64,000 nucleotides of DNA from Vicinamibacterales bacterium (lineage in GTDB: Bacteria > Acidobacteriota > Vicinamibacteria > Vicinamibacterales > UBA2999). Every line of letters starts with the position of its first letter. Position 1 is the first letter of the stretch. The translations under genes were made by a program, and so were the position numbers. Below, in pieces: positions 11,434 through 62,543 of this stretch. The DNA lies in assembly GCA_035711805.1 (NCBI GenBank), contig DASTBV010000055.1:380-64379 (forward strand). Direction: 5' to 3'. The notes below the pieces were generated by a model. That model ran no database searches and was not told the DNA's origin. It saw only the letters and a program-made list of their open reading frames with translations.

Positions 11434-11576
11434 CGTTCGAATCGTTCGAATCGTTCGAATCGTTCGAACCGTTCGAACGTTCTGAAGGCGAACGCCTCGA
11501 ACGACCCGAACGTTCCGAACGTTCCGAACGTTCCGAACGTTCCGAACGTTCCGAACGTTCCGAACGTTCCGAACGA
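11434..11576. repeat. 9-nt tandem repeat array
   Basis: (CGTTCGAAT) x3 plus 2 variant units, a 28-nt bridge, then (CGAACGTTC) x7 at 11507-11569. The units contain the palindromes TTCGAA and GAACGTTC. Confidence 0.9.
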
Positions 11577-12404
11577 CTATTTCACCTTCGTCAGCGTCAT
11601 CTGCTGCGCGGCACCGCCGCCGTTCGGGCGCTGCGTTCCCTCGATCACGCCACCTTTGACGCGGCCGTTGAACTCCTGTTTTCCGGTGGACAGCATCACG
11701 TCATTCCCGCGCAGGCGGCCGGTGATGTTGATCGTCTGCCCGTCGGATCCTCTCGAGGTTCCCGACAGCATCTGGAACTGCTGTGTCAGGGTGAACTCCC
11801 GGCCGTCGCCGGTCCGCCACGTGCCGGCGATCTTGGCCGGGACGATGTTCAGCATCACCGTGCACCACTGCGAGCAGTTCTCCACGGTCGTCTGCTCGTC
11901 CGGCGTCCAGTCGGGGATGCTGAAGGTATTCAGCACCACGCGCGTGCCGGCGGGCAGATTGAAAATCTTGTCGCGCAGCGTCGTCAGGTTGCTCGGCAGG
12001 AGGAACAGCGCCAGCGCCGTGGCCTTCGAGAAGTCCGCCTCGTACATGTCGCCCTGCACGAACTGGGCTCGCTCCGCCACGCCCTCCTTGGCGGCGATCC
12101 GCTTCGACAGCGCCACCATGTCCGGGTTGTATTCCACGCCGAGGCCGCGCGCGCCCAGCTTGGCCGCCGCGATCACATTCCGCCCGTCGCCCGATCCAAG
12201 GTCGACGACGAAGTCCTGCGGCGTAATCTTGCCGACCTCCATCATCTTGGCGACCGTCTCTTCCGGAGACGGGACCCAGACGACGTCCTTGCCAGGCTGC
12301 CCGACCTGGGGAACGAATTCTTCCTTTGTCTGCGCCGCGGCAGGATGCACGTAAGCGGCGGTCACGATAATTGCGACGACAACGCGTCCGACGGATTTCA
12401 ACAT
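11577..12404 (-). CDS. class I SAM-dependent methyltransferase with signal peptide
   Basis: Motif I VVDLGSGDGRNV. N-terminal signal MLKSVGRVVVAIIVTAAYVHPAAAQ. Confidence 0.75.
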   Translation of the reverse strand: MLKSVGRVVVAIIVTAAYVHPAAAQTKEEFVPQVGQPGKDVVWVPSPEETVAKMMEVGKITPQDFVVDLGSGDGRNVIAAAKLGARGLGVEYNPDMVALSKRIAAKEGVAERAQFVQGDMYEADFSKATALALFLLPSNLTTLRDKIFNLPAGTRVVLNTFSIPDWTPDEQTTVENCSQWCTVMLNIVPAKIAGTWRTGDGREFTLTQQFQMLSGTSRGSDGQTINITGRLRGNDVMLSTGKQEFNGRVKGGVIEGTQRPNGGGAAQQMTLTKVK

Positions 12405-12409
12405 CTCAG

Positions 12410-12659
12410 TCCCCCGAAAGGCCGACGGTCCGCCTCCGCGCTGCGCGCTTCGGCGAGACGGCCTCTACCATCCCCCGAAAGGCCGACCTGAAACGTCGGC
12501 CTCTACCATCCCCCGAAAGGCCGACCTGAAGGTCGGCCTCTACCAACCACCAACCACCAACTACCAACTAGAAAGGCGACACTACATATACCCGAAACTG
12601 GGACTAGAATGACCCACCTTCGCTGCTTTCCGCCTCCGCGCTCGGCGCTTCGGCGGGAC
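12410..12659. repeat. mosaic of nested repeats in a divergent spacer
   Basis: CCCCCGAAAGGCCGAC occurs 3 times (12411, 12472, 12510), each as part of a 38-nt hairpin unit AGGCCGAC-ctgaa-GTCGGCCT. The first copy is interrupted by a 31-nt element that recurs exactly 200 bp downstream (12429-12459 vs 12629-12659, 28/31 identical). CCAACYA repeats at 12541-12570. Confidence 0.85.
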
Positions 12660-12699
12660 AGGCTGCAGCTACGGTGGGCAAGCGCCCCTTGGAGGACGT

Positions 12700-13551
12700 A
12701 TGACTCGACGCACTGTTCCCGCTCTGCTGATGGCGGTTAGCTTGGCCGCGGCCACGGGATATGCGCAGGCTCCGGCTGGCGGCGGCCGGGGAGGGCGTGG
12801 CGCAGGTCCGGCTCAACCGGCGGCGGAGGTTCCGGCCGACCCTCTGAGCGCCCTGGCGCCGGCAAATCTCGCGAAAGCGCGGCCAAAGGCGCCCTTTGAC
12901 CTGACCGGTAACTGGTTCATCAACGGAGGTGTTCCCGGCGGTGGCTGGCTGTTCGGCCGGACGCCCGCGGTTCTTCCCAAGCTGACCCCGGCGGCGCAGA
13001 AGCACTTCGACGCCTACGCGGCTGCGGCGAAGGACGGCAAGGTCTATCGCGACGACATCGGCAAGTGCTGGCCGGCGGGAATGCCGGTGATCATGACGCG
13101 CGTCTGGCCGATCGCGATGATCCAGCTGCCGACGGCGATCTACATGATCAGCGAGTTCATGAACAGCCTGCGCGTGATCTATCTCGACGGCCGGTCGCAT
13201 ACGGATCCGGACATCGTCGTCCGCAGCTTCAACGGCGAGTCGATCGGCCGCTGGGAGGGCGACACGCTGGTTGTGGACACGCGCAATTTCACTGACCTCG
13301 ACAAGCACTGGGTCGATCAGGGAATACCGGCGAGCAAGGACTTCCGGATGATCGAGCGCTACAAGTTGATCAACAACGGCAACACGCTGCAGGGTGAGTG
13401 GACGTTGATCGACCCGCAGAACTGGGAAGGCGAGTGGAAGGGGACGCGCACCTGGAATCGCGTCACGGATCACGATATTCAGGAAGTCGAATGTCTGCCC
13501 GACCTGAACGAGCATCTCCAGAGTACGAAATCGGGAGTTCATGTCCGTTAA
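12700..13551 (+). CDS. secreted protein of unnamed family (paralogue of 14029..14838)
   Basis: GGAGG RBS and signal peptide. Motifs FDLTGNWF, CWPAGMPVIMTRVWPIAMIQLPTAIYMISEF and SIGRWEGDTLVVDT. Confidence 0.8.
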   Translation: MTRRTVPALLMAVSLAAATGYAQAPAGGGRGGRGAGPAQPAAEVPADPLSALAPANLAKARPKAPFDLTGNWFINGGVPGGGWLFGRTPAVLPKLTPAAQKHFDAYAAAAKDGKVYRDDIGKCWPAGMPVIMTRVWPIAMIQLPTAIYMISEFMNSLRVIYLDGRSHTDPDIVVRSFNGESIGRWEGDTLVVDTRNFTDLDKHWVDQGIPASKDFRMIERYKLINNGNTLQGEWTLIDPQNWEGEWKGTRTWNRVTDHDIQEVECLPDLNEHLQSTKSGVHVR

Positions 13552-13558
13552 TCGGGCC

Positions 13559-13632
13559 GGTTCACGAGGTTCAGTGGGTGCAAGGGGTTCAGTGGGTGCA
13601 AGGGGTTCAGTAGGTGCAAGGGGTTCAGGAGG
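13559..13632. repeat. 18-nt tandem repeat (GGTTCAGTGGGTGCAAGG) x3 plus partial copies
   Basis: Full units at 13568-13585, 13586-13603 and 13604-13621. The last partial unit, GGTTCAGGAGG, supplies the RBS of the next gene. Confidence 0.9.
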
Positions 13633-13636
13633 ACAG

Positions 13637-14029
13637 ATGAAGAAGCTCATAATCGCGTCGACCCTTATGCTGAGCGTCGTCGCGCCCGCGTTCGCGCATC
13701 ACTCGCCCGCGGCGTTCGAGGCACAGAAGACTGTGACGCTGACCGGCGTCATCAAGGAGTTCCGCTGGCAGAACCCGCACACGTGGATCGAGCTCTACGT
13801 GCCGAACGAAAAGGGCGAGGAGGTTCTGTGGGCGGTGGAGCTGACCAGCCCCACCTACCTCGTTCGCGCCGGCTGGAAGTCGAATACGCTCAAGCCGGGC
13901 GACAAGGTGACGGTGGTCGGCCGCCCGCTGAAATCGGGTGAGCCGGGCTCGGCAATCTTTACGTCGGTGACGCTCGCGGATGGACGCACCCTGGTCGAAC
14001 GGCCGGCGCGGCAGGGCGGTGCCAAGTAA
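13637..14029 (+). CDS. DUF6152-like small secreted protein
   Basis: Track ORF trimmed to the ATG at 13637, which follows AGGAGG. Signal peptide ending AFAHHS. Motif FRWQNPHTWIEL. Confidence 0.7.
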   Translation: MKKLIIASTLMLSVVAPAFAHHSPAAFEAQKTVTLTGVIKEFRWQNPHTWIELYVPNEKGEEVLWAVELTSPTYLVRAGWKSNTLKPGDKVTVVGRPLKSGEPGSAIFTSVTLADGRTLVERPARQGGAK

Positions 14030-14838
14030 TGTTCCGCCGCGTTGCGGTTGCAGGCGCCGTTGCCGCCGTCATCGCCGGGATGCCGGCGTCTCTCGTCGCG
14101 CAGCGCGGGCAGGCGCCTCCGCCGGCCGAGCCGTTGAGCGCGCTGGCGCCTGAAAACCTGGCCAAGCCGCGGCCGAAGGCGCCGTTCGATCTGACCGGGA
14201 ACTGGTTCGTCGACACCAGCGCAGGCCCCGACGCGTGGCGTTTCGGCCCGCCGTATCCGAAGCTGACCGCGAAGGCGCAGAAGGAATTCGACACCGGGAT
14301 GAAGTTGCTCAAGGAAGGCAAGGTCTACAAGGACGACATCGGCCAGTGCTGGCCGGCAGGCCTTCCGCTCATCATGACGCGCTACTGGCCGATGGCGATG
14401 ATTCAGCTGCCAACGGCGATCTACATGGTCAGCGAGTTCATGAACAGCTTCCGGACGGTCTTCCTCGACGGCCGTCAGCACACCGACCCCGACATCGTCG
14501 TCCGCACGTTCAACGGCGAATCGATTGGCCGCTGGGACGGCGACACGCTCGTCGTCGACACGCGTCACTTCCGCGGCGATCACCACTGGATGGACCAGGG
14601 TGGCGCGTCCATTCCGGCGGGCGAACAGCTGCGCATCGTGGAGCGCTTCCGGCTCCTCCCGGGCGGCAAGCAGCTGCAGATCGAGTACACGATGACGGAC
14701 CCCGAGCACTGGGAAGGCGAGTGGAAGAGCACGAAGCGATTCAACCGGGTCAACGACAGCGACATCAAGGAAGTCGTGTGCCTTCCGGATCTGAATGACC
14801 ACCTGAAGAGCACGCGATCGAAAACGCAGGTTCAATGA
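14029..14838 (+). CDS. secreted protein, paralogue of 12700..13551
   Basis: TAATG stop/start overlap with the upstream gene. Motifs FDLTGNWF, CWPAGLPLIMTRYWPMAMIQLPTAIYMVSEF and SIGRWDGDTLVVDT. Confidence 0.8.
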   Translation: MFRRVAVAGAVAAVIAGMPASLVAQRGQAPPPAEPLSALAPENLAKPRPKAPFDLTGNWFVDTSAGPDAWRFGPPYPKLTAKAQKEFDTGMKLLKEGKVYKDDIGQCWPAGLPLIMTRYWPMAMIQLPTAIYMVSEFMNSFRTVFLDGRQHTDPDIVVRTFNGESIGRWDGDTLVVDTRHFRGDHHWMDQGGASIPAGEQLRIVERFRLLPGGKQLQIEYTMTDPEHWEGEWKSTKRFNRVNDSDIKEVVCLPDLNDHLKSTRSKTQVQ

Positions 14839-14894
14839 CAGGCCTCAGGGATCAGGCCGCAGGCCTCAGGGCCTCAGGCCTCAGAGGAATTTCG

Positions 14895-16661: not shown

Positions 16662-16663
16662 TT

Positions 16664-17608: not shown

Positions 17609-17611
17609 CGC

Positions 17612-17685
17612 GGCAGCAATTCAGAATTCAGGATTCAGAATGCAGACATCGGCCTGCATTCTGCATTCTGAACTCTGCATTCCGA
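17612..17685. repeat. heptamer (TGCATTC / GAATGCA) hairpin
   Basis: TTCAGAATGCAG pairs with CTGCATTCTGCATTCTGAA. The same unit appears at 35230-35308 and 62462-62543. Confidence 0.8.
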
Positions 17686-18441: not shown

Positions 18442-18517
18442 CTAGTTGGATAGTTAGACAGTTAGTAGTTCGTAGTTAGTTCGTAGTTAGTTCGTAGTTG
18501 GACAGTTCGTAGTTCTA
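18442..18517. repeat. left arm of the inverted repeat flanking the four-helix-bundle gene (CGTAGTT-type units)
   Basis: TAGTTGGATAGTTAGACAGTT...CGTAGTTAGTTCGTAGTT matches the reverse complement of 19022-19085. Confidence 0.85.
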
Positions 18518-18640
18518 CCCCTAGCACAAACTGCGTACCCGCGCCGGCGGGGACGTTGCAGTTTCTCAAACCCTCCGCGGCACAAGTGGCTGAAACCCGC
18601 TTGAATTCGCACGCGAACGAAACGTGCATGGCCTTGAGCC

Positions 18641-19021
18641 ATGGCGCACAGCAAAGCGTTTCGTGATCTCATGGTCTGGCAACGTTCGATGGCCCTCGTC
18701 CAGCGTATTTACGAAATCAGTGCCGCGTTCCCAAGGGATGAACGATTCGGTCTCACCGCTCAGATCAGGCGGGCCGCAGTGTCGGTGCCGCCGAACATCG
18801 GCGAAGGATCGCGTCGGAAGAGACGGAAGACATTCCTGAATCACCTGGACATCGCGCTCGGCTCCCAGGCCGAAGTGGAAGTCCAGCTTGAAATCGCACA
18901 GCGGCTGCGGTTCGTGAAGATGGCTGATTACAAGCAGACGCAGATTGCGGTGGAAGAGATTGGCCGGATGCTGAATGGGCTCATCGTTTCGCTTCAGCCC
19001 GATGGCGACGCCGAACTATGA
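18641..19021 (+). CDS. four-helix-bundle protein (23S rRNA intervening-sequence protein / Avd-like, TIGR02436-type)
   Basis: Family signature FRDLMVWQRSMALVQRIYEISAAFPRDERFGLTAQIRRAAVSVPPNIGEG...LDIALGSQAEVEVQLEIA. Lower G+C than the neighbouring genes. Confidence 0.85.
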   Translation: MAHSKAFRDLMVWQRSMALVQRIYEISAAFPRDERFGLTAQIRRAAVSVPPNIGEGSRRKRRKTFLNHLDIALGSQAEVEVQLEIAQRLRFVKMADYKQTQIAVEEIGRMLNGLIVSLQPDGDAEL

Positions 19022-19085
19022 ACTCCGAACTACCAACTACGAACCAACTACGAACTATCTAACTATCCAACTACCGACTAACCGC
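19022..19085. repeat. right arm of the inverted repeat
   Basis: Its reverse complement reads TAGTTGGATAGTTAGATAGTTCGTAGTTGGTTCGTAGTTGGTAGTT, matching the left arm. Confidence 0.85.
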
Positions 19086-23738: not shown

Positions 23739-23747
23739 TTAGTTGCT

Positions 23748-23808
23748 GATCGTGGGGCGCGCCTTGTCAGGCGCGCCACGCGGACCTGACAAGGTCCGCG
23801 CCACGATC
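23748..23808. terminator. 24-bp imperfect hairpin between convergent genes
   Basis: GATCGTGGGGCGCGCCTTGTCAGG pairs with CCTGACAAGGTCCGCGCCACGATC. Confidence 0.6.
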
Positions 23809-23827
23809 GTCATTCTGATCCGCGCTG

Positions 23828-26810: not shown

Positions 26811-26816
26811 GATGGC

Positions 26817-26879
26817 CTCAGTCTTCAGTTCTCAGTCTTCAGTTCTCAGTCTTCAGCTTTCAGTCTTCAGTTCTCAGTC
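26817..26879. repeat. heptamer tandem repeat (TCAGTYY) x9 filling the DUF4956-CotH spacer
   Basis: TCAGTCT TCAGTTC TCAGTCT TCAGTTC TCAGTCT TCAGCTT TCAGTCT TCAGTTC TCAGTCG. Confidence 0.9.
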
Positions 26880-27569
26880 GTCGTCGTCGTCGGTGATCCG
26901 CTTCAGGCTGACGCTTTGTACGCCTTCCGTCGTATTCAACGCGCGAAGCAGCGCGTCCGCGGCGGCCACGTCGCGAAGCGACGCCCGGAACGTCGCGTCG
27001 ACGGCGAGTCCCTGGCGCGCAGTGGCCAGCGACATCAGCCGTCGGTCGCTGACATGAAGATCCAGAGCCGGCCTGACGATGACCTGTGGATCATGACCGA
27101 TTCCGACCCTGACCTGAAGCTCGAAGGGCTCGGTTCCGGCTGGGGTGGCGATCTGCGCATCGCCCCGTTTCATTGCAAACGCGGCTATGGCCACCACGGC
27201 GATTCCCGCGACCGCCAGCCAGGGATACCCCGCGCCAACCGCCATGCCGACGCCGACCGCGAAGATCACGAACGCCGTGTCCTGGGTGTCGCGCACCACC
27301 GTGCGGAAGCGCACAATCGACAGCGCGCCCACCAGGCTGAACGCCCGCGCCACGTTGTCGCCGATCACCTGCGTGACCATGGCGATCAGTATGGACAGAA
27401 GGACCAGCGTGGCCGTGAACGACGGCGCGACCTCGGCCTTGGAACGGGTGAATCGGTAAACCAGCGCGGCGACGCCGCCGAGCAGGAGGGCGGCAAGGAG
27501 TCGTACCAGAACGACGAGCGGCGGTAGGGCTTCGAAATCGAGCAGCGACTCTCGAAAGAGGTCAGGCAT
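26874..27569 (-). CDS. DUF4956 membrane protein
   Basis: Motifs FSLVGALSIVRFRTVVRDTQDTAFVIFAVGVGMAVG, plus TM helices. Confidence 0.75.
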   Translation of the reverse strand: MPDLFRESLLDFEALPPLVVLVRLLAALLLGGVAALVYRFTRSKAEVAPSFTATLVLLSILIAMVTQVIGDNVARAFSLVGALSIVRFRTVVRDTQDTAFVIFAVGVGMAVGAGYPWLAVAGIAVVAIAAFAMKRGDAQIATPAGTEPFELQVRVGIGHDPQVIVRPALDLHVSDRRLMSLATARQGLAVDATFRASLRDVAAADALLRALNTTEGVQSVSLKRITDDDDD

Positions 27570-29432: not shown

Positions 29433-29440
29433 GCGATCAC

Positions 29441-29500
29441 GACACACCGACGCACTGAGGCACTGAGATCAACAGGAGCCTCGGTGCCTCAGTGTGTCGC
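29441..29500. repeat. imperfect hairpin (CACTGAGGCAC / GTGCCTCAGTG)
   Basis: GACACACCGACGCACTGAGGCAC pairs with GTGCCTCAGTGTGTCGC. It lies between co-directional genes. Confidence 0.7.
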
Positions 29501-29509
29501 ATCATGAAT

Positions 29510-30620: not shown

Positions 30621-32498
30621 ATGTCACACGTTCGCATCGGGTTGGCGGTTGTCGTGGCCGCGGTGACGTGCATGTCTGTGCTGACAATCGGGCAGGAACG
30701 CGACCGCGCCAAGGTCGCCGACGAATACAAGTGGAACCTCGCCGACATCTATCCGGATGCGGCCGCCTGGCGGACACAGAAGGAAACCGTGACCGCCCAG
30801 ATTCCCAAGCTGCGTGAATTCCGCGGCAAGCTGGGATCGTCGCCGCAGTCGCTCGCGTCGGCGCTGGAAATGGCGACGCGGCTCAACAAGGAGCTGACGC
30901 GCCTGTACGTGTACGCCAGCATGCTGGCCGACACCGACACGCGGGTCTCCGAACCGCAGGGCATGCAGCAGGAGATGCAGCAGATCTATGCCCAGTTCGG
31001 GGCCGAGGCGTCGTTCATCGAGCCCGAAGTCCTGAAAGTGGGCACGGCGACGATTGAGAAGTTCATCGGCGCCGAGCCGCGGCTGAAGACCTACACCTTC
31101 TATCTGCGCGACATCGTCCGCCGGGCGCCCCACACGCTCACCGACGCGGAGGAGAAGCTGCTCGCGGACGCGGCGCCGCTGGCCGGCTCCGCCTCGAACA
31201 TCTACGGGATCCTGACCAACGCGGATTTCCCGTACCCGACGATCACGATCAGCGACGGCCGCATGGTGAAGGTCGATCAGGCTGGCTACAGCGAGCTGCG
31301 CACGTCGAAGAACCGCGCCGACCGCAAGGCGGCGATGTCGTCGTTCTTCGGCTCGCTGGGCGGATTCAGCCGCACGTTCGGCACGACGATCAATTCGGAA
31401 GTCCAGAAGGTGCTGTTCTACGCCAGGGCGCGGAAGTACGCGTCGAACCTGGAAGCGTCGCTCGATCCCGCGAATATCCCCGTCACCGTGTACACGCGCC
31501 TCGTGGCCGGCGTGAACCGCCACCTGCCGACGTTCCACCGCTACCTCAAGCTGCGCAAGCGGATGATGGAGATCTCCGACGATCTCCACTACTACGATCT
31601 GTATGCGCCGCTCGTCTCGTCCGTCGATCTCCGCTACAGCCCCGAGGAAGCGCAGAAGCACGTTCTCGCCGCGTTCGCCCCCCTCGGCAGCGACTACCAG
31701 GCCGTCGTCCACCGCGCGTTCAAGGAGCGGTGGCTCGACTGGCACCCGACCGAAGGCAAGCGGTCGGGTGCATACTCGAACGGCGGCGCCTACGACGTGC
31801 ATCCGTACATGCTGCTCAATTACCTCGGGCAGTACAACGACGTCAGCACGCTGGCCCATGAACTCGGCCACACGATGCACAGCTACTACTCGAACAAGAC
31901 GCAGCCGTTCCAGACCGCCGACTACGCCACGTTCGTGGCCGAGGTGGCGTCGACGTTCAACGAAGCGCTGCTCATCGACCACATGCTGAAGCAGATCAAG
32001 GACACGCCGACGCGGCTGTCGCTGCTCGGCAACTACCTGGAGAACATCAAGGCAACGGTCTTCCGCCAGACCCAGTTCGCCGAGTTCGAGCTGCGGATGC
32101 ACGAGATGGCGGAGAAGCGGCAGCCGATCACCGGCGACGCGCTGGCGAAGCTGTATCTCGACATCACCCGCCGCTACTACGGGCACGATCAGAACGTGAC
32201 CGTCGTTGACGACTACATCGCGCACGAGTGGAGCTTCGTGCCGCACTTCTACCGTGACTTCTACGTCTTCCAGTACGCCACGTCGTTCACCGCCGCGGAA
32301 GCGCTGTCGGCGAAGGTGCTGAGCGGAGACAGGGAAGCGACGAAGCGCTACCTGACGTTCCTGGGCGCCGGCGGCTCGGACTATCCGGTGGAGCTGCTGA
32401 AGAAGGCGGGTGTCGACATGACGACCGACGAGCCGCTCGACCTGACCATCCGCAAGATGAACGCCGTGATGGACGAGATGGAGAAGCTGCTGCGGTGA
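30621..32498 (+). CDS. pepF: oligoendopeptidase F (M3B) with signal peptide
   Basis: Motif HELGHTMHSYY. Length and overall pattern fit M3B. Confidence 0.85.
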   Translation: MSHVRIGLAVVVAAVTCMSVLTIGQERDRAKVADEYKWNLADIYPDAAAWRTQKETVTAQIPKLREFRGKLGSSPQSLASALEMATRLNKELTRLYVYASMLADTDTRVSEPQGMQQEMQQIYAQFGAEASFIEPEVLKVGTATIEKFIGAEPRLKTYTFYLRDIVRRAPHTLTDAEEKLLADAAPLAGSASNIYGILTNADFPYPTITISDGRMVKVDQAGYSELRTSKNRADRKAAMSSFFGSLGGFSRTFGTTINSEVQKVLFYARARKYASNLEASLDPANIPVTVYTRLVAGVNRHLPTFHRYLKLRKRMMEISDDLHYYDLYAPLVSSVDLRYSPEEAQKHVLAAFAPLGSDYQAVVHRAFKERWLDWHPTEGKRSGAYSNGGAYDVHPYMLLNYLGQYNDVSTLAHELGHTMHSYYSNKTQPFQTADYATFVAEVASTFNEALLIDHMLKQIKDTPTRLSLLGNYLENIKATVFRQTQFAEFELRMHEMAEKRQPITGDALAKLYLDITRRYYGHDQNVTVVDDYIAHEWSFVPHFYRDFYVFQYATSFTAAEALSAKVLSGDREATKRYLTFLGAGGSDYPVELLKKAGVDMTTDEPLDLTIRKMNAVMDEMEKLLR

Positions 32499-32504
32499 TC
32501 GATT

Positions 32505-32571
32505 TCGTGGCCACTGAGGCACGAAAACACGACGGCTGACCAGTGTTCTCCGTGCCTTCGTGTCTCCGTGG
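32505..32571. terminator. imperfect hairpin between convergent genes; right arm shared with 34264-34291
   Basis: GCCACTGAGGCACGAAAACACGACGG pairs with CCGTGCCTTCGTGTCTCCGTGGC. Confidence 0.6.
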
Positions 32572-34212: not shown

Positions 34213-34215
34213 GCA

Positions 34216-34291
34216 CGGGCCACGGAGTCACAGGGACACGGAGACGTTCTTCTCTCCGTGCCTTTGTGTCTCCGTGGCTACGCATCACCTA
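34216..34291. terminator. about 26-bp imperfect hairpin between convergent genes
   Basis: GCCACGGAGTCACAGGGACACGGAGA, loop cgttctt, then CTCTCCGTGCCTTTGTGTCTCCGTGGC. Confidence 0.65.
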
Positions 34292-34296
34292 GGTAG

Positions 34297-35229
34297 CTAG
34301 AGAATTCTTTTGCCGAGCGCCGACAGTGCGAGCTCGGTGGCGAACTCCGCCGTCGCATTCCGATTGTCCAGCGTTGGGTTCACTTCCACCAGATCGAGCG
34401 CGACGAGCTGATTCGAGTCGGCCACCAGTTCCATGATCACGTGCGATTCGCGGTAATCGAGGCCGCCGCGCACCGGGGTTCCGACGCCCGGCGCAATCGT
34501 CGGGTCGCAGACATCCAGGTCGAATGAGACGTGAATGCCTCCCGTCCCGGAGGAGGCCAGCGTCAGCGCGCGTTCGGCGATCGCGGCCGCGCCGTCGCGA
34601 TCGATGTCCTTCATCGTGAAGACATGAACGCCCGATGCGCGAATCTGCTCTTTCTCCTCGTCGTCGAGATTGCGAATGCCGACCAGCACGGTGTGTTCGG
34701 GCCGTACGCTTGGCGACGCGCCGATCGACGCCAGCTCCTGAGGCTCCTGTCCGAGCAGCGCGGCGAGCGGCATTCCGTGCACGTTGCCGCTGGTCGTGGT
34801 TTCCGGCGTGTTCATGTCGCCGTGCGCGTCCACCCAGATCAGGCCGAGCGGCTTGCCGTTAATCCGGCGGATGTAGTCGGCGCTCGCCGCGACCGACCCG
34901 GCCGCGATGCTGTGGTCGCCGCCGAGCACCAGCGGGAGGGCGCCCGCCTCGAGCGACGCCGAGCAGCTGGCATACAGCGATCGGCACACCTCCGCGATTG
35001 GCTCGATGTATTTCTTCCGCCGGTCGAGCGCGTCCTCGGTTTCGGCGATTGGCGCGGGCAGATTGCCTTTGTCGATCGCCTGGCGGCCGAGCCGCGCGAT
35101 CGCTTCGCCGAGACCCGCGATGCGGACCGCCGACGGACCCATGTCCACCCCGCGGCGCGCGCCACCGAGATCGAGGGGGACTCCAATGATGTGTATGGGT
35201 TTCAAAGTGCGCCGTAATTGGAAATGCAA
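34297..35229 (-). CDS. rocF: arginase
   Basis: Motifs GGDHSIA, WVDAHGDMNTP and SFDLDVCDP. An internal TTG at 35205 would give the typical MKPIHIIGVP N-terminus. Confidence 0.9.
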   Translation of the reverse strand: MHFQLRRTLKPIHIIGVPLDLGGARRGVDMGPSAVRIAGLGEAIARLGRQAIDKGNLPAPIAETEDALDRRKKYIEPIAEVCRSLYASCSASLEAGALPLVLGGDHSIAAGSVAASADYIRRINGKPLGLIWVDAHGDMNTPETTTSGNVHGMPLAALLGQEPQELASIGASPSVRPEHTVLVGIRNLDDEEKEQIRASGVHVFTMKDIDRDGAAAIAERALTLASSGTGGIHVSFDLDVCDPTIAPGVGTPVRGGLDYRESHVIMELVADSNQLVALDLVEVNPTLDNRNATAEFATELALSALGKRIL

Positions 35230-35308
35230 AATTCAAAATTCAAAATGCAAAATGCAAACTGAAGCTGCGGCCATTTTGCATTTTGCATCTTGCATTCTGC
35301 ATTCTGCA
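35230..35308. repeat. heptamer hairpin (AAATGCA / TGCATTY)
   Basis: AAAATGCAAAATGCAAA pairs with TTTTGCATTTTGCAT, followed by CTTGCATTCTGCATTCTGCATT. Confidence 0.8.
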
Positions 35309-35941
35309 TTACTTGATCCTGTACGACACCGACATCCCCTCGCCGGACGGCGAGACGATTGTCGTGAAGAGCGACGAATGTCCCTGGACCGTCCGCAGGA
35401 ACGGTTCCATGTCCTTCTTCTTGTTCACGACGTTGTGCGCCGTGAAGACGCCGCCCGGCGTGAGGCGCGGGAACACCATGTCGAAGAATTTCTTGTAGTC
35501 CGGCTTCCAGGCGTCGAGGAAGACGAAGTCGAAGGTTCCCGTCAGCTTCGGAATTTCCTTGAACGCGTCGCCATGCACCACGCGCACGACGTCGTCCAGG
35601 CCCGCCCGCCTGATGTTCGCGGCCGCCTCCATGGCGCGGGCCGCGTCGTATTCGATCGCCACCACGCGGCCGCCGGATTCGCGCGCGCCAAGGCCGAGCC
35701 AGATACCGCTGTAGCCGCTGGCCGCGCCTATTTCGAGGATCGACTTCGCGCCGCGCGTGGCGACGAGCACGCGAAGAAACCGCCCGTCCTCCTCGGACAC
35801 GGCGAGCTGTCCTTTGTCGGCGGCCTTGATGCTGCGCAGGATCGATTCGATCTGCGGAGTCAGTGCGCCCGAGGGACGCTGCCCTGTGGCGGCGTCGGAC
35901 GTGAGAAGGAGAGCGGCGATCAGCACGGCCACGAAGCGCAT
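35309..35941 (-). CDS. class I SAM-dependent O-methyltransferase (family 3-like) with signal peptide
   Basis: Motifs ILEIGAASGYSGIW and FDFVFLDAWKPDY. Confidence 0.8.
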   Translation of the reverse strand: MRFVAVLIAALLLTSDAATGQRPSGALTPQIESILRSIKAADKGQLAVSEEDGRFLRVLVATRGAKSILEIGAASGYSGIWLGLGARESGGRVVAIEYDAARAMEAAANIRRAGLDDVVRVVHGDAFKEIPKLTGTFDFVFLDAWKPDYKKFFDMVFPRLTPGGVFTAHNVVNKKKDMEPFLRTVQGHSSLFTTIVSPSGEGMSVSYRIK

Positions 35942-49473: not shown

Positions 49474-49487
49474 GGGGGTAATAGGTT

Positions 49488-49726
49488 ACAGGGATCAGGG
49501 ATCAGGGATCAGGGATCGGGGATCGGGATGGGGGACCGCGGGATCGGATGGGGGACCGCGGGATCGGATGGGAGACCGGGGATTGGGGGAATCGGTTATG
49601 AATCTGAAACGACCAAACCGGGCGACGTATCGTCGAAAACTGCGAAAGGCTGGCAGGACCCGGTTCCATCCCGATCCCTGGTCCCGGATCCCTGGTCCCG
49701 GATCCCTGGTCCCGGATCCCTGTCAG
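49488..49726. repeat. about 240-bp compound inverted repeat built of GGGATCA-type units
   Basis: Left arm: (CAGGGAT) x4, CGGGGAT, CGGGAT, then (GGGGGACCGCGGGATCGGAT) x2. Right arm: (CCCTGGTCCCGGAT) x3, ending CCCTGTCAG. About 65-nt central loop. Confidence 0.85.
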
Positions 49727-49727
49727 T

Positions 49728-49733
49728 TATAAT
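49728..49733 (+). promoter_or_regulatory. perfect TATAAT box 6 nt upstream of the ATG at 49740
   Basis: GTTATAATTTGCCCATG. No room for an SD sequence; suggests a leaderless transcript. Confidence 0.4.
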
Positions 49734-49739
49734 TTGCCC

Positions 49740-51044
49740 ATGCGTACAGCAGCTAAGTTCTTGACAGCAGGCGCGTTCGCGCTGCTGCTCGCACTCGGCG
49801 CCCCGCCGGCGCCCAACACCATTCACGCGCAGGCCGGCGCTCAGGCGCCCGCTCCGAACCAGCCGCCCACGTTCCGTGCGTCGGTCGACCTCATCACGAC
49901 CGACATGATCGCGCGCGATTCGCGGACCGAGCAGTTCATCGCCGACCTCAAGCCGCACGAGATCGAGATCCTCGAGGACGGCGTCAAGCAGGAAATCGTG
50001 TCGTTCGTGCTGACGCACGGCGGACGCGTGTTCAACACCCTCGCGCCTCCGCCGGCTCCGGTCCAGGAAGGCATCATCCTGCCGCAGCGCCGGCCGACCA
50101 ACGACGCCGCCGGACGCATCTTCCTGATCTTCATCGACGACTTCCACCTGCAGTTCCGCGAGACCCCGCGGACCCGCGAGCTGATCAAGAAGATGCTTCG
50201 CCTTCTCATTCACGAAGGCGACATGTTCGGCATCGTCAGCACCGGCCACTCGTCGATCTCCGAGCAGCTGACCTACGACCGTCAGGTGCTCGAGTCGTCG
50301 ATCGAGCGCATTACCGGCGGCGGGCTGACCCCGAAGGACATCATGCAGGGGATGGCGACGTCGCAGGGTCCGGCCGAGCTCCGCCATCGCGCCCACGTGG
50401 CGTTCTCGACCGCCTACGACCTGATGCGCAACCTGGAGAAGGTGCAGAATCGCCGCAAGGCCGTCATCTACATCAGCAGCGGCTACGACTTCGATCCGTT
50501 CGTCGAAGGCCGGCTCGAGGAGCAGGCGCGGCGCATGGGGATCGACAGCTCGTCGGATGAGGGCGGCGGACTGGGTTCGGCAGCGGACCGGCTGCGCGAA
50601 GATCCGACATATCGGGACCAGCGCTCGAGCCAGCAGCTGGCCGCCACGGATCTGATCCGGGAAGTGTACGACCTGACGAAAGCCGCCAATCGCGCCAACG
50701 CGACGCTGTACACCATCGATCCGCGCGGCCTGATTGCCGGTCCCGACATCGATCAGGAAGTGAACATGACCGACTGGAACGCCTACGTGCGCGAGACGCA
50801 GGACAGCCTGCGCATGCTGGCGGAACAGACCGGCGGCATCGCCATCGTCAACCAGAACGACTTCGACAAGGGGCTCAAGCGGATCGACAACGAGACCAGC
50901 GATTACTACGTGCTGGGCTACTACTCGAGCAACCCCGACCCGACGCGCCGCACGCGCAAGATCGAGGTGCGCACAACGCGGCAGGGTGTGGCCCTCAAGG
51001 CCCGCGAGAGCTACTCGCTGCGTCCGACGAATCTCCGCCGCTGA
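49740..51044 (+). CDS. VWFA-related acidobacterial-domain protein (TIGR03436-type)
   Basis: Signal peptide. Motifs FRASVDLITTDMIARD and IEILEDGVKQEIVSF. VWA-like core IFLIFIDD. Confidence 0.8.
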   Translation: MRTAAKFLTAGAFALLLALGAPPAPNTIHAQAGAQAPAPNQPPTFRASVDLITTDMIARDSRTEQFIADLKPHEIEILEDGVKQEIVSFVLTHGGRVFNTLAPPPAPVQEGIILPQRRPTNDAAGRIFLIFIDDFHLQFRETPRTRELIKKMLRLLIHEGDMFGIVSTGHSSISEQLTYDRQVLESSIERITGGGLTPKDIMQGMATSQGPAELRHRAHVAFSTAYDLMRNLEKVQNRRKAVIYISSGYDFDPFVEGRLEEQARRMGIDSSSDEGGGLGSAADRLREDPTYRDQRSSQQLAATDLIREVYDLTKAANRANATLYTIDPRGLIAGPDIDQEVNMTDWNAYVRETQDSLRMLAEQTGGIAIVNQNDFDKGLKRIDNETSDYYVLGYYSSNPDPTRRTRKIEVRTTRQGVALKARESYSLRPTNLRR

Positions 51045-51979: not shown

Positions 51980-52903
51980 TCAGGATACTCTGAGCGCGGC
52001 GCGCGTCCTTTCGATCGCGTCCTTCAGATACCCTTCGTCCATCTCGATCCCGACGAAACTGACCCCGAGCTGCGCGCAGGCCACCGCGGTCGATCCCAGC
52101 CCCAGAAAAGGATCGGCCACGACCTGCAGCCGCTCGAGCCCGTGCAGGCGGAGGCACATCTCGGGGAGCTTCGGCGGAAAGGTGGCCGGGTGGGGGCGAT
52201 CCTTCTCGCGGCTCTGAATGGTCTCGTAGGGGATGAACCAGGTGTTGCCACGGCATCGCACGCCCGACGCAGCCGTCCGCCAGCGTCCGACGTTGGACTG
52301 GTCCTGGTACTTCACGCCGATCGCCTGACGTTCGATGGGCGTGGTGCCCGCCGGGCTGAAGTGGAAGACGAACTCATGGCAGTCGTGCAGAAATCGCCGG
52401 CTGTTAATCGGCTTGTAGTGGCCGACCGCCAGATCGTCCGCCAGTCCCGCGCGGGTGCCGGCAAGCGCCTTCTCGATGGCGATCGACTTGATCCAGTGAA
52501 TGGTGTTCTGCAGGTGCAGGTGCGAGCGTGCCGCCTGGGCGACGTCGATCGCCGTCCACGGGTCGGTGGGCTTTGCTCCCACGTTCAGAAACAGCGAGCC
52601 GTCCGCAGACAGAGCGCGAGCGGCCCGGCCGACCCATAGGGACGTCCATTCCAGGTAGCGCTCGCGCGGAAGCGTGTCCTCGTAGGTCCGGTAACGGATG
52701 CCCAGATTGTACGGAGGTGACGTGACAATCGCGGAGATCGACCCCGCCGCGAGCCTGCCGAGCACGTCAACCGAGTCGCCCAGATAGAAGCGGAAGACCG
52801 TGCTGCCGGATTTGAAGGTTGTATGGGGGTGTGGGTAACGCGGCACCGCCGCAGATCTTATCGTGTGGGGATCAACTCCCAACTTCCAATTCCCAACTCC
52901 CAA
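51980..52903 (-). CDS. beta-class DNA methyltransferase (N4-C or N6-A), no partner endonuclease seen
   Basis: Motif IV IVTSPPYNLG precedes motif I DPFLGLGSTAVA. The true start is probably the GTG near 52846, because the first about 19 codons translate the hairpin repeat. Confidence 0.8.
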   Translation of the reverse strand: MGVGNWKLGVDPHTIRSAAVPRYPHPHTTFKSGSTVFRFYLGDSVDVLGRLAAGSISAIVTSPPYNLGIRYRTYEDTLPRERYLEWTSLWVGRAARALSADGSLFLNVGAKPTDPWTAIDVAQAARSHLHLQNTIHWIKSIAIEKALAGTRAGLADDLAVGHYKPINSRRFLHDCHEFVFHFSPAGTTPIERQAIGVKYQDQSNVGRWRTAASGVRCRGNTWFIPYETIQSREKDRPHPATFPPKLPEMCLRLHGLERLQVVADPFLGLGSTAVACAQLGVSFVGIEMDEGYLKDAIERTRAALRVS

Positions 52904-52949
52904 ACACTCCCGTCAGCTACTGGGAGTTGGAAGTTGGCAGTTGGGAGTT
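52874..52949. repeat. heptamer hairpin (AAYTYCC / GGRARTT)
   Basis: AACTCCCAACTTCCAATTCCCAACTCCCAAACACTCCC, 8-nt loop, then CTGGGAGTTGGAAGTTGGCAGTTGGGAGTT. Confidence 0.85.
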
Positions 52950-52952
52950 TCC

Positions 52953-55218: not shown

Positions 55219-55355
55219 GTGTATGGCACCTTTTTTGGAATGGCTGGGCGCTTCGCGCCTGCCGAGGTGACGCGAAAGGATACATTAACGCTTGCGCGTT
55301 AAAGATTGTTTGCTACAATGCCGACACACGCCGTAACAAACTGTCTCGCAAAGGG

Positions 55356-57304: not shown

Positions 57305-57329
57305 TCAACGAATCATACACACGGCGGCG

Positions 57330-57450
57330 ACGAGTGTTCACGCTTCCAGGTGCTCTCTTCCCGGTTCGTGTTCAGGTTCCGTTCAAACCAAGAACGGCCG
57401 CCGAACACAGAACACGAACCGGGCACCGAGAATGCGGACGCGTGAACGGT
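57330..57450. repeat. nested hairpins; 3' part shared with 37413-37460
   Basis: CCCGGTTCGTGTTC pairs with GAACACGAACCGGG. Outer GTTCACGC pairs with GCGTGAAC. The shared 15-mer is GGACGCGTGAACGGT. Confidence 0.75.
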
Positions 57451-57465
57451 GTTAGGGTGTGATGG

Positions 57466-58917: not shown

Positions 58918-58924
58918 GCAAACC

Positions 58925-59251
58925 ATGGCATCGGAGAATGTGAAGACTTTCACTGACAGCAATTTCGACGAGGAGACGAAGCAGGGCGTTGTGCTGGTCG
59001 ACTTCTGGGCGGAGTGGTGCGGACCCTGCCGCCGCATCGCGCCGATCGTCGAGCAGCTGGCCACCGAGTACGCCGGGCGAGCCACCATCGGCAAGATGAA
59101 CGTCGACGAGAACCCGAACGTGCCGACCAGCCGGTTCCACGTGCGCGGCATCCCGACGCTTGTCGTGCTGAAGAACGGACAGCTCGTCGACACCATCGTC
59201 GGTCTGGTTCCCAGGGAAGACATCGTCTCCGCGCTCGAGCGTCACCTCTGA
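58925..59251 (+). CDS. trxA: thioredoxin
   Basis: Trimmed to the ATG at 58925. WCGPC active site. Confidence 0.93.
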
Positions 59252-60231: not shown

Positions 60232-60234
60232 ACC

Positions 60235-60771
60235 GTGGCTGCAGCCGCGTCGTCGAAGTACGCCTCGTCGGACCTTCGACAGCTGCTGTTTCTCATCGAC
60301 ACGGCGTACGACCGCGTCTCATGGCACGGTCCCAACCTGAGGGGTTCACTGCGCGGGATGACGCCCGCGCTCGCCGCATGGCGTCCCGCCGTCGAACGTC
60401 ACAACATCTGGGAGCTCATCGTGCACGCGGCGTACTGGAAGTACGTCGCATGGCGGCGCCTGACGGGGGCGAAGCGCGGCTCGTTTCCGCTCGCCGGCTC
60501 GAACTTCCTCGCGCGACCGGTCGAGAACACAAAGGCCGCCCTGCAGGCCGACCTCGATCTGCTCGACGAGATGCATCGCGTTCTGCGCGAGGCGGCGGCT
60601 GCCGTGCCGGCCGGGGCGCTCGACTTGGGCTCGGCACAGCGCGGCGTCACGAAACGCGCCTTGCTGACCGGCGTCGCGGCGCACGATCTCTATCACGCTG
60701 GTCAGATCCAACTACTGAAGCGACTCGAAAGGACCTGTCGCGCCGAAGCGCGGCAGCGCGAAGGCGGATGA
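60235..60771 (+). CDS. DinB-family protein
   Basis: Motifs WHGPNL, HAAYWKY and HDLYHAGQI. Confidence 0.75.
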   Translation: MAAAASSKYASSDLRQLLFLIDTAYDRVSWHGPNLRGSLRGMTPALAAWRPAVERHNIWELIVHAAYWKYVAWRRLTGAKRGSFPLAGSNFLARPVENTKAALQADLDLLDEMHRVLREAAAAVPAGALDLGSAQRGVTKRALLTGVAAHDLYHAGQIQLLKRLERTCRAEARQREGG

Positions 60772-61319
60772 GTGTCATTCAATCGCTCGTCGACGAATAC
60801 CGGCGTTACAAAGCGCTGGCCGAAGCCGCGATCGCCCAGGTCGGCGACGAAGAGCTCGGGCACGCGGGCCACGACGGCGGCAACTCGATCGAGATGCTGA
60901 TCCGGCACATTGCCGGCAACCTGAAATCGCGGTTCACCGAGTTCCGCACCAGTGATGGCGAGAAGCCATGGCGCCACCGGGACGACGAGTTCGAATCCGC
61001 CGGATTGAGCCGGACGGCGCTGTTACAGGTCTGGGAGGAGAGCTGGAGCGTATTGTTCGTCGAACTGGAAAAGCTGGGCGACGGCGACCTGAGCTCCACC
61101 GTGACCGTTCGGCGGCAGCCGCTGCGGATCGATGAAGCGCTGCACCGCTCGCTTGCGCACACGGCCTACCACGTCGGCCAGATCGTATTCATGGCGAAGG
61201 CGATGCGGGGCGGCGGCTGGCGCACGCTCAGTATTCCGAAGGGCAAGTCAGAGGAGTACAACCAGAAGGCCACGGGCGAGACCGCGGCAGCGCATGCGAA
61301 GAAGCTGATGGAGAGGTAG
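60768..61319 (+). CDS. DUF1572 (DinB-like) protein
   Basis: ATGA overlap with the upstream gene. Motifs NSIEMLIRHIAGNL and HTAYHVGQIVF. Confidence 0.75.
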   Translation: MSVIQSLVDEYRRYKALAEAAIAQVGDEELGHAGHDGGNSIEMLIRHIAGNLKSRFTEFRTSDGEKPWRHRDDEFESAGLSRTALLQVWEESWSVLFVELEKLGDGDLSSTVTVRRQPLRIDEALHRSLAHTAYHVGQIVFMAKAMRGGGWRTLSIPKGKSEEYNQKATGETAAAHAKKLMER

Positions 61320-61402
61320 TCTGGGTTGCCTGGGTCCGGACACCGCGCCTGACCCAGAACCACTTAGGCCACCCAGGCTACCTAGGCTGCCACCCAGGCC
61401 AC
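61320..61402. repeat. CACCCAGG / CACCTAGG-type repeat between convergent genes
   Basis: GGCCACCCAGGCTACCTAGGCTGCCACCCAGGCCACCTAG, preceded by CTGGGTTGCCTGGGT. Confidence 0.75.
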
Positions 61403-62461
61403 CTAGTCGATCCAGCCGCCGCCAACGACTACATCGTCGTGATAGAAGACCACGGCCTGGCCGGGCGTCACTGCCGACTGCGGAGTGTCGAACTCGAGTT
61501 CGGCACGGTTGCCCTCGATCGCCCGGACGCGCGCTGGTGCCGGCGTATGTCGATAGCGGATCTGTGCAGCCACCGAAAGCCAGTCCGTCGGCGCCTCGGC
61601 GGCCACCCAGTTCACGTCCGATGCGGTCAGTGTGGTGCGCTCGAGCGACGACTTCGGGCCGACGGTCACGTTGCCGGTGTCGGCGTCGATCTGCAGCACG
61701 TACAGCGGAGCCGGCCCGGACACACCCAGTCCCTTGCGCTGACCGATCGTGAAGCGGTGAACGCCGGCATGTGTGCCGAGCTGCTCGCCGCTCTCGGCAA
61801 CGATAGCGCCGTGGTGCGCGACGTGCGGTGCCTTGCGTGCGACGAAGGACGCGTAGTCGCCGTCCGGGACAAAGCAAATCTCCTGGCTGTCCGGCTTGTC
61901 GGCAACCTGTAAACCCAGGCGGTGGGCCTCGCGCCGCACCTCGGGCTTGGTCAGGGCGCCAACCGGAAACATCGCCGCCGCCAGCTGATCCTGTGTCAGC
62001 GAGAAGAGGAAGTAGGACTGATCCTTGTCCCGATCGACGCTTCGCTTCAGCATCCAGCGATTCGTGTCTCGCTCCACCTGCGCGTAATGACCGGTCGCGA
62101 CGGTGGATGCGCCGAGGCCGTGTGCGCGCTCGAGGAGCGTCGAGAACTTCAGGTCGCTGTTGCAGTGGGCGCAGGGCAGCGGGGTGCGGCCGGATGCGTA
62201 CTCGCGGACGAAATTCGAGATGACCGTCTCCTGGAACTGGCGCTCGAAATTCAGGATGTAGTGCGGAAAGCCCACGGCCGCCGCCACGCGGCGCGCATCG
62301 TTCAGATCGTCGAGCGTGCAGCAGCTGCCGAAATGCAGGCCGGGCTCGCCCTGAGCGTAGAGCTGCATCGACAGACCGATGACGTCATGACCCTGCTCGG
62401 CAAGCAGGGCCGCGGCGACGGACGAGTCGACTCCGCCGGACATTGCTACTACGACACGCAT
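61403..62461 (-). CDS. mnmA: tRNA 2-thiouridine(34) synthase
   Basis: PP-loop AMSGGVDSS. Length 352 aa. Confidence 0.93.
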   Translation of the reverse strand: MRVVVAMSGGVDSSVAAALLAEQGHDVIGLSMQLYAQGEPGLHFGSCCTLDDLNDARRVAAAVGFPHYILNFERQFQETVISNFVREYASGRTPLPCAHCNSDLKFSTLLERAHGLGASTVATGHYAQVERDTNRWMLKRSVDRDKDQSYFLFSLTQDQLAAAMFPVGALTKPEVRREAHRLGLQVADKPDSQEICFVPDGDYASFVARKAPHVAHHGAIVAESGEQLGTHAGVHRFTIGQRKGLGVSGPAPLYVLQIDADTGNVTVGPKSSLERTTLTASDVNWVAAEAPTDWLSVAAQIRYRHTPAPARVRAIEGNRAELEFDTPQSAVTPGQAVVFYHDDVVVGGGWID

Positions 62462-62543
62462 CCTTAATGCAGAATTCTGAATTCAGAATGCAGTACGTCC
62501 GTGTTCTGCCTGCATTCTGCATTCTGCATTCTGAATTGCAGGT
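62462..62543. repeat. heptamer (TGCATTC) hairpin
   Basis: TTCAGAATGCAG pairs with CTGCATTCTGCATTCTGCATTCTGAA. Confidence 0.85.

Follow-up and report, generated by a model that had tools for sequence, protein, structure and literature searches.

Heptamer repeats and stem-loops with a small open reading frame (ORF) have been described separately in several bacteria. In Coxiella burnetii, the intervening sequence (IVS) of the 23S rRNA gene has tandem GACAGAT heptamers beside its S23p ORF, with a copy number that differs between strains, and a 28-bp terminal stem within which the RNase III cuts were mapped (PMC4990558). The GGGAATC and GGGGAYT heptamers of Xanthomonas and Nostoc are mostly of about four units, 89-93% intergenic, located close to the upstream ORF's 3' end and variable between close species; Xanthomonas has 70-75 convergent inverted pairs per genome, just downstream of genes (Rehm et al. 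2015, PMC4692102). The consulted sections of that paper draw no link between the heptamer repeats and a PF05635 gene. TAACTGA repeats are known from Beggiatoa (PMC4679880), and elements of four and five heptamers from Geobacter metallireducens (PMC2700814). In our literature search, heptamers were tied to an S23p/PF05635 ORF only for one Coxiella IVS (PMC4990558). Here we report on the spacers of a 64,000-nt stretch of a Vicinamibacterales bacterium (contig DASTBV010000055.1, 65% G+C; hereafter the window), which hold short tandem arrays, often followed by the reverse-complement array. We think it fairly likely (probability about 0.6) that these spacers hold a family of mobile, slippage-prone, IVS-like stem-loops, the complete form of which carries a PF05635 gene in its loop.

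The gene-bearing cassette is located at 18442-19085. The arrays at 18442-18517 and 19022-19085, which an earlier note on this DNA had listed as separate spacers, in fact pair as the arms, about 500 nt apart, of a single 640-nt stem-loop around a PF05635 gene that the note had overlooked. On the + strand, the left arm, (TAGTTNG)n, starts 1 nt past the TGA of a DUF2071 gene. It is followed by a leader (18518-18640) in which the inner palindrome AAACTGCG...GTTGCAGTTT can be read, by the gene of a 126-aa protein (18641-19021) and, from the first base after the stop codon, by the right arm, (CNAACTA)n, which is the reverse complement of the left arm. Both arms were reported by Tandem Repeats Finder (TRF), and their pairing in RNAduplex gave -72.7 kcal/mol. 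The 126-aa protein belongs to the family of 23S-rRNA-IVS, four-helix-bundle and Avd-like proteins: it matched PF05635 (23S rRNA intervening-sequence protein) at E 1e-35, also bAvd, TIGR02436 ("four helix bundle protein") with 120 bits and PDB entry 2gsc (Xanthomonas XCC0516) at E 4.7e-22, and it had 2113 homologues at E <= 1e-20. The neighbours are the DUF2071 gene and another protein-coding gene. The cassette is not in helix 25 or 45 of 23S rRNA, since it lies between protein-coding genes and Rfam at gathering thresholds gave no match, rRNA included, anywhere in the window.

The protein as Avd of a diversity-generating retroelement was considered and rejected, because the NCBIfam Avd model gave 54 bits against a cut-off of 80 and the neighbours are the DUF2071 gene and unrelated ORFs. 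PADLOC gave no defence-system match for the 126-aa protein. The leader of the window cassette and the leaders of loci L081-L086 (L-numbers are loci fetched from the genome collection for comparison with the window) have in common the inner palindrome and the motif AACTGCG...GTTGCAG(A/T)TT; judged by its sequence, the palindrome could act as operator or promoter, or work at the level of RNA as a structural element.

The link between the PF05635 gene and inverted arrays extends across phyla. Homologues were gathered in three scans of the genome collection (25, 80 and 73 loci), the third of which was profile-based, took the best-listed matches and was without enrichment for Vicinamibacterales. 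Arrays were detected by TRF plus a match to the reverse-complement consensus, and windows shifted by 800 nt were used as control. Inverted tandem arrays flank the PF05635 gene in 19/25 loci of the first scan, in 41/80 of the second (38 of the 41 with period 7) and, among the matches listed, in 34/73 of the third, against 0/150 in the shifted controls. After deduplication, 77 of 164 distinct PF05635 genes have TRF-detectable period-7 pairs, and further pairs are visible by eye. The labels of the cassette records include Acidobacteriota, Xanthomonadaceae, Bacteroidota and Planctomycetota, as well as Clostridia, candidate-phyla-radiation lineages, Chloroflexota and Desulfobacterota. The heptamer that flanks the gene changes from locus to locus. 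The upstream array ends at a median of 50 nt ahead of the PF05635 gene's start codon, and the downstream array starts at a median of 12 nt past its stop codon.

Some single cassettes deserve a description. In a locus of Planctomycetota (L180) the PF05635 gene is placed between giant arms, (CGGTGGA)x34.7 and (CCACCGT)x34.3. Another Planctomycetota locus (L100) has the unit GACAGAA, given as the same as in the Coxiella IVS, and its flanking arrays are purine-rich (AGAAGAC upstream, GGAGGCA downstream) and not mutual reverse complements. In Xanthomonas vasicola and Pseudoxanthomonas (L106, L107), the XCC0516 orthologue is between accB-like and accC-like frames, with GGGAATC-type heptamers flanking it. 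On the P0080 contigs (L297-L306) the upstream arm is compound, with (TAGTTGG)5 and then (TTCAGGG)3-5 in variable copy number, and downstream a direct TAGTTGG array after the gene is followed about 70 nt further by the reverse complement; from its layout, this looks like nested or adjacent elements.

The arms of the cassettes have a preferred size. They have a median of 4.4 units on each side; the commonest arm length is 30-32 nt, and the commonest number of in-phase AG dinucleotides five. Within the units, AG, AGT, CAG and TAG are over-represented and ATG is under-represented. In the copy-number histogram of all period-7 arrays the peak is at 4.0-4.5 units, and the gene-less hairpins of the window are within this peak.

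Such a size preference has to be weighed against the explanation that the arrays are neutral, microsatellite-like by-products of slippage, immobile and functionless, which persist where they are harmless. Copy number does change by whole units, an excess of heptamer simple sequence repeats is known in many bacteria (cited in PMC4692102), and the arrays are confined to non-genic DNA. However, arm length has a sharp peak at 30-32 nt (4.0-4.5 units) in place of a decay towards longer arms, and the arms are mutually complementary. Furthermore, whole elements of 73-160 nt appear, disappear or swap among close relatives, homologous arms occur at unrelated loci, and the association is specific to one gene family (controls 0/150). 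We consider the neutral explanation quite improbable.

Slippage itself was observed in the cassette arms. Metagenome contigs that encode an identical 126-aa protein have an upstream array longer by +8 and by +8+22 nt, with the other arm constant, and other cassette clades have 9-16 units, 2 vs 3 units, or 3-5 units. The earlier proposal that the arrays grow by slippage is supported by these whole-unit changes, but slippage alone is insufficient, because a hairpin of 87 bp is present at a GTGA site, a spacer is absent in a relative and a wholly different unit is present at a third site (all described below). Inversion was also found: the P0034 clade (L287-L296) shares with the window the DUF2071 neighbour and the arm beside it, but has leader and gene inverted, as expected from recombination between inverted arms. 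Among proteins 75-100% identical to that of the window the unit remains of the TAGTTGG type, and in Vicinamibacterales clades further away it varies to TAGGTGG or TAGCTGG. Cassettes therefore keep their unit far better than gene-less sites do.

Forms with and without the gene belong to one element, because the arms of a gene-less hairpin are homologous to those of the window cassette. One contig in four DNA metagenomes joins position 18498 to 19047 through six bases (CGATTC), at single-copy depth equal to that of the intact cassette alongside; the two deletion endpoints pair with each other in the cassette stem. An exact-pattern scan found the joint sequence (L276) on two JGI contigs otherwise dissimilar to the window. 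L276 is a gene-less hairpin between two convergent ORFs, and its CTAG ends provide both stop codons. Compared with the cassette arms, about 46/52 and 27/29 aligned positions of its arms are identical, the order of the unit variants included. In addition, L002 has a homologous cassette at a different locus and in opposite orientation, with the flanking unit type of the window. Units are also shared between forms: TAGTTGG is common to the window cassette and the hairpins of L002 and L015, AATGCTG to Terriglobales cassettes and the hairpins of L054, L016 and L046, and the PF05635 cassette of L194, (CAGGGAT)x10.7/(TAATCCC)x9.9, has the unit found in the window at 49489-49529. A GGGAATC-type unit is common to the Xanthomonas/Pseudoxanthomonas cassette and the published Xanthomonas repeats (PMC4692102).

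Extragenic palindromes that are multi-copy in metagenomes and polymorphic for insertion might alternatively be elements of the repetitive extragenic palindromic (REP) type or REP doublets forming hairpins (REPINs), spread by a REP-associated tyrosine transposase (RAYT), which is IS200/IS605-like. But the units here are of many unrelated types (more than 60 different heptamers were counted across the loci, about 12 of these in the window), not one or a few conserved REP sequences, and the arms are tandem arrays. The partner gene encodes a four-helix-bundle protein and not a Y1 transposase, a family that was matched by 0/20 window proteins scanned against Pfam. It is thus very improbable that a RAYT system explains these spacers.

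Whole gene-less elements also turn over between close strains. The relatives compared have an M3 oligopeptidase like that of the window (gene 30621-32498), the protein of which is 98% identical to that of one Vicinamibacterales metagenome-assembled genome (MAG), 87-90% in two more MAGs and 60-80% in many Acidobacteriota MAGs, and many soil and root metagenomes contain sequence near-identical to the window. BLASTN alignments with relatives end exactly at the spacers, even for L001, the flanking genes of which have 93-96% nucleotide identity. The unit turnover that the earlier note expected between orthologous spacers was thus seen, with L001 spacers differing beside such similar genes. At 29433-29509 the window has a 77-nt hairpin, which brings in its own stop codon and ATG, where L001, L002, L004 and L068 have a 4-nt GTGA start/stop overlap. 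At 32499-32571, L001 is practically without a spacer, and at 34213-34296 its hairpin is a different one, 160 nt long, made of CCTTGGT units and unrelated to that of the window. The window and L001 agree at 26811-26873 in the flanks and in the first unit, and a different variant unit is amplified: L001 has (GTCAGAC)x5 at this DUF4956/CotH site, which forms a hairpin, unlike the array of the window at 26817-26879. In many relatives the site 3' of the M3 peptidase stop has a hairpin of tandem units, and the unit changes from one relative to the next (TAGTTGG, GCTTTCG, CCAACTC, CTTCCGG, CACGAAG, GGGGCTC, CTTCCAG, GCTGAAT and others). Loci of Vicinamibacterales/Acidobacteriota contained palindromic array pairs, and so did L006, a MAG labelled Acidimicrobiia with an M3 protein 77% identical to that of the window; they were not found in the loci of Eisenbacteria, Woeseiaceae, Bacteroidota and Terriglobales fetched with the M3 query.

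At the site of 29433-29509, L003 (8775-8860) has a short insertion with a flanking CTTCAC duplication, which duplicates the start codon region. Going by this sequence, it may be a first step in the uncoupling of overlapping genes.

Within the window, period-7 arrays of at least 3.5 copies (non-redundant) number 9, whereas the 30 dinucleotide shuffles of the window that served as the enrichment baseline had 0.13 on average and never more than 1. So the case that the earlier note had named as refuting, arrays no more frequent than in shuffled sequence, does not hold for the window. Period 7 makes up 16/24 of the non-redundant arrays of period 5-12, and eight window arrays have 4.0-4.5 copies. 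Arrays that have a period of 5-12 and three or more copies number 12, and every one of them is in a spacer, though the window is mostly coding.

TRF reported every array that the earlier note had listed, so the arrays are real, but they are present in 16/29 spacers and not in nearly every one; the remainder have ordinary hairpins or nothing. Many units do differ, but a unit is not strictly private to its spacer, as AATKCAG units and CACGGAG/CACTGAG-type units each recur at three sites and the 3' arms 32540-32571 and 34253-34278 are 25/26 identical by sequence comparison. The order of an array and then its reverse complement is true of ten spacers, among them 29433-29509, a palindromic hairpin missing from the earlier list. 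It is false for the arrays at 13568-13628, 14839-14884 and 26817-26879, which are without a reverse-complement partner and have structure at shuffle level. For palindromic spacers of up to 150 nt, hairpin z-scores were computed from the RNAfold energy against shuffles: the nine folded gave z -1.8 to -7.4, and 7/9 were at -3.7 or lower, which bears out the claim of stable hairpins. A CRISPR array is rejected, in agreement with the earlier note, as the units are contiguous and without unique spacers between them. G-quadruplexes are rejected as well, because GGG runs are present only at 49489-49587, and AATGCAG, TAGTTCG, AACTCCC and TCAGTCT units are incapable of forming them.

The position of the arrays, the starts of which are a few bases from stop codons, leads to the question of transcription termination. 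Canonical Rho-independent terminators were rejected. Hairpin-plus-T hits in the window were not above shuffles (7 vs 10.8; 16 vs 12.0), the sole array hairpin called as terminator was the inner part (34237-34260) of 34216-34291, and the T-tract sought after arrays in the window was absent, as the earlier note had said. The note also offered "I-shaped" terminators. In a rival reading, the hairpins would be such terminators without a U-tract, or 3'-protective hairpins, selected in place, with arrays arising as slippage duplicates stem segments on both arms. This agrees with the starts just past stop codons, with arrays in 14/22 spacers that have a gene 3' end against 2/7 divergent ones, with the hairpin of varying unit kept right after the M3 peptidase stop in many relatives, and with the slippage in the cassette arms; and since canonical terminators are at shuffle level, something else must end transcripts. 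However, the 3'-end enrichment is not significant (Fisher p = 0.19), L001 is without hairpins at the same sites despite its flanking genes being 93-96% identical, and a hairpin is inserted at the GTGA overlap of four relatives. Several hairpins are within operons, in which ending transcription would do harm. The GC content of the arrays is below that of the genome (53% vs 65%), the stems far exceed terminator stems, and three arrays are unstructured. The PF05635 link and the homologous copy at another locus would remain unexplained. We therefore regard selection in place as unlikely.

In a 40-kb part of the window (11000-50999) there were zero sigma-70-like promoter matches, where shuffles predict 1.8-2.1. 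By these sequence counts, the lineage seems to use signals other than sigma-70-like promoters and hairpin-plus-T terminators.

We read the IVS-like elements as follows. Each is a stem-loop with one arm built from tandem copies of a 7-nt (sometimes 8-9-nt) unit and the other from copies of that unit's reverse complement. A complete element has the PF05635/TIGR02436 gene in its loop, for example at 18442-19085, and we take the other hairpins for gene-less forms like miniature inverted-repeat transposable elements (MITEs). Elements settle at gene ends, often abutting or providing the stop codon, and are gained, lost and replaced as a whole between close strains. The arms lengthen and shorten by unit slippage, and the inner segment can be inverted by arm-arm recombination. 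The results above show this anatomy, the stability of the hairpins, their location at gene ends, turnover, slippage, inversion, the homology of the two forms and the cross-phylum link of gene and arrays; the steps after transcription are inferred. A read-through transcript would fold into a duplex of about 20-60 base pairs, and RNase III would cut this duplex, separating neighbouring cistrons and setting RNA ends. Long regular duplexes are the classic substrate of RNase III, and by analogy with the 23S rRNA IVS the transcribed stems are probably cleaved by it. To our knowledge, the 23S rRNA IVSs are the only members of this element class that have been studied experimentally. How the elements move, and what the protein may do, is likewise inferred.

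Several results weigh against this model. Cognate cassettes were found for only three or four of the roughly twelve unit types of the window: CAGGGAT, TCAGTCT and TAGTTCG were the only window units in sampled cassettes, and cassettes with AATGCAG, AACTCCC, CACGGAGA or CGTTCGAAT were not found among about 160 sampled cassettes, a thin coverage of roughly 1200 possible heptamers. The G-rich arm comes first in 48/57 cassettes, while the gene-less pairs in related loci are about 9 G-first and 8 C-first; this mixed chirality means that not all gene-less hairpins are simple apical deletions of cassettes. Neither 29433-29509 nor the cassette nor L276 showed a clear target-site duplication, and no transposase was identified with the element, the only cassette gene being that of the four-helix-bundle protein. 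Selection on RNA pairing left no strand-specific signature in 57 cassette stems (G-U vs A-C 33 vs 24, p = 0.28), sense vs antisense folding was mixed in 7 co-directional window hairpins, and the three arrays at 13568-13628, 14839-14884 and 26817-26879 are without any hairpin.

A more specific idea, which we hold only tentatively and with more doubt than belief, is that PF05635 proteins may bind their own heptamer arrays sequence-specifically, one subunit per 7-nt unit and with clade-cognate units, and may drive the spread or maintenance of the gene-less hairpins. Avd is a pentamer, and the PF05635 crystal entries 2gsc and 2rld have five chains each. One subunit per unit would fit, because the canonical arm of 31 nt has five in-phase AG cores. 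If true, this array binding would account for the bacterial heptamer excess, for the Xanthomonas, Nostoc and Geobacter families, and for the origin of the ORF-bearing 23S IVS.

The remaining arrays of the window are described here in order, with the strand where one was assigned. At 11434-11576, 9-mer arrays, (CGTTCGAAT)x5.6 and then (CGAACGTTC)x~9, form two long hairpins (TRF; RNAfold -86 kcal/mol, z -6.35); a methyltransferase gene, 11577-12404(-), stops on one side of them, and gene 10535-11392(-) starts on the other. The sequence is multi-copy, because metagenome contig depth over it is 545-750 against about 15-30 around it. A solo array of 31 nt, (CTACCAA/CCAACYA)x4.4, is at 12540-12570 (TRF; metagenome depth 213-334), and its unit type is that of the right arm of the PF05635 cassette. 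A direct 18-mer x3.4 is at 13568-13628 on the + strand, without reverse-complement partner or structure (TRF; z +1.49). Immediately 3' of the stop at 14838, (CAGGCCT)x6.4 occupies 14839-14884 (+), with weak self-complementarity (TRF; z -0.68). The gene-less heptamer hairpin (AATTCAG)x4.1/(CTGCATT)x4.1 at 17618-17682 lies between the stop at 17608 and the DUF2071 gene (z -3.89).

The spacer 12405-12603 contains, at 12459-12545, a 38-nt unit x2.3. Its fold is -88.9 kcal/mol on the - strand (20 G-U) against -65.5 on the + strand (1 G-U), a strand difference in the sequence that hints at a transcribed structured RNA. The region 12505-12805, which takes in the 3' end of this spacer and the adjacent CCAACYA array, has a soil metagenome depth of 213-334 vs about 15-30. 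The genes 12700-13551 and 14029-14838 are paralogous; stretches of them (13107-13407 and 14311-14611) are 5-15x deeper than their surroundings in metagenomes, and metagenome contig joints link the two paralogues. At 23739-23827, between convergent genes, there is a non-periodic GC-rich double hairpin (z -6.1), which is of the ordinary kind and unlike the arrays.

The direct array (TCAGTYY)x9 at 26817-26879 (-) fills the DUF4956/CotH spacer without a hairpin (TRF; z -0.12), and its last unit gives the TGA stop of gene 26874-27569(-). The hairpin at 29433-29509 (-), absent from L001, L002, L004 and L068, is 8-mer-based, with GCACTGAG units (z -6.38). Between the convergent stops 32498 and 32572, a hairpin of CACGRAG/CACTGAG type is at 32505-32571 (z -1.88; absent in L001), and a CACGGAGA-type hairpin at 34216-34291 is likewise flanked by convergent stops (z -5.87). 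The (AAATGCA)x5.3/(CATTTTG)x5.6 hairpin at 35222-35310, between an arginase-family gene and an O-methyltransferase gene, overlaps the TAA stop of the latter (z -4.87), and RNA and DNA contigs of dissimilar flanks converge on this array. A large element in a divergent spacer, at 49489-49722, consists of (CAGGGAT)x6, a 130-nt centre and (ATCCCKG)x7.7 (TRF); for the 287-nt spacer 49474-49760, RNAfold gave -155.1 kcal/mol (energy alone and without shuffles). The (CAACTCC)x4.4/(TGGGAGT)x4.1 hairpin at 52873-52949 has the lowest z given here, -7.40, and its unit is also in L004, L006, L011 and L012. An imperfect hairpin of CCTGGGT/ACCCAGG type at 61320-61403 has convergent stops on either side (TRF; z -1.83). 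The last one, (AATGCAG/AATTCAG)x4/(CTGCATT)x4 at 62466-62537 (TRF; z -3.70), is of the same unit family as 17618-17682.

These elements matter in several ways. They point to a source of fast structural change at gene boundaries, where they may bring new stops, separate genes that had overlapped, invert segments and add candidate sites for RNase III. The widespread "four helix bundle protein" family gains a testable nucleic-acid partner. Short-read assemblies of abundant soil Acidobacteria are interrupted at the arrays, which could also be used as strain-level markers.

Compared with known systems, the cassette shares with the ORF-bearing 23S rRNA IVS of Coxiella burnetii and Leptospira the PF05635 family of its ORF and terminal inverted repeats that form a stem around the ORF (-72.7 kcal/mol). 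Unlike the IVS, it is between protein-coding genes and outside helix 25 or 45, the arrays that make up its arms are much longer, the ORF is missing from most window copies, and cutting by RNase III would here follow by analogy. Rho-independent terminators also are hairpins just past a stop codon, but the window hairpins have no T-tract, far longer stems and AT-richer sequence than the genome, and some are in operons. Like MITEs, the gene-less L276 has the inverted ends of a longer gene-bearing cassette, that of the window; it differs in that no transposase or target-site duplication was found and that the ends are internally repetitive and change in length.

REP/REPIN elements with their RAYT are similar as short, dispersed extragenic palindromes, variable between strains and tied to a single-copy partner gene. 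They differ by a conserved REP head sequence, in place of which the window has tandem arms of many units, and the partner here is a four-helix-bundle protein without known catalytic activity. The proposed partnership of protein and array would resemble that of RAYT and REP, but with a candidate non-catalytic nucleic-acid binder. The short tandemly repeated repetitive (STRR) sequences of cyanobacteria and the Beggiatoa and Geobacter heptamers are, like those of the window, intergenic, typically of 4-5 units and in many copies per genome, but have mostly been described as direct repeats of one unit.

The earlier note had recognised no named family, but precedents exist in the inverted heptamers of Xanthomonas (PMC4692102) and in the Coxiella IVS heptamers (PMC4990558). 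With the Xanthomonas/Nostoc type, as described there, the window arrays share the 7-nt period, the intergenic location, the nearness to stops and, in ten spacers, the palindromic arrangement, and the G-rich unit at 49489-49722 is similar to the Xanthomonas heptamers. Xanthomonas has essentially one unit type, read as G-quadruplex-forming, whereas the 64 kb of the window contain a dozen, and few of these are rich in G. The window is thus a case of a known heptamer-array type, with many units and at very high density, and what appears to be new is the general link of gene and array and the relation of gene-bearing to gene-less forms. The data suggest that a single element type, a PF05635 gene between heptamer arms of about 31 nt with plentiful gene-less derivatives, underlies the bacterial heptamer excess, the inverted arrays of Xanthomonas and Nostoc and the ORF-bearing 23S IVS.

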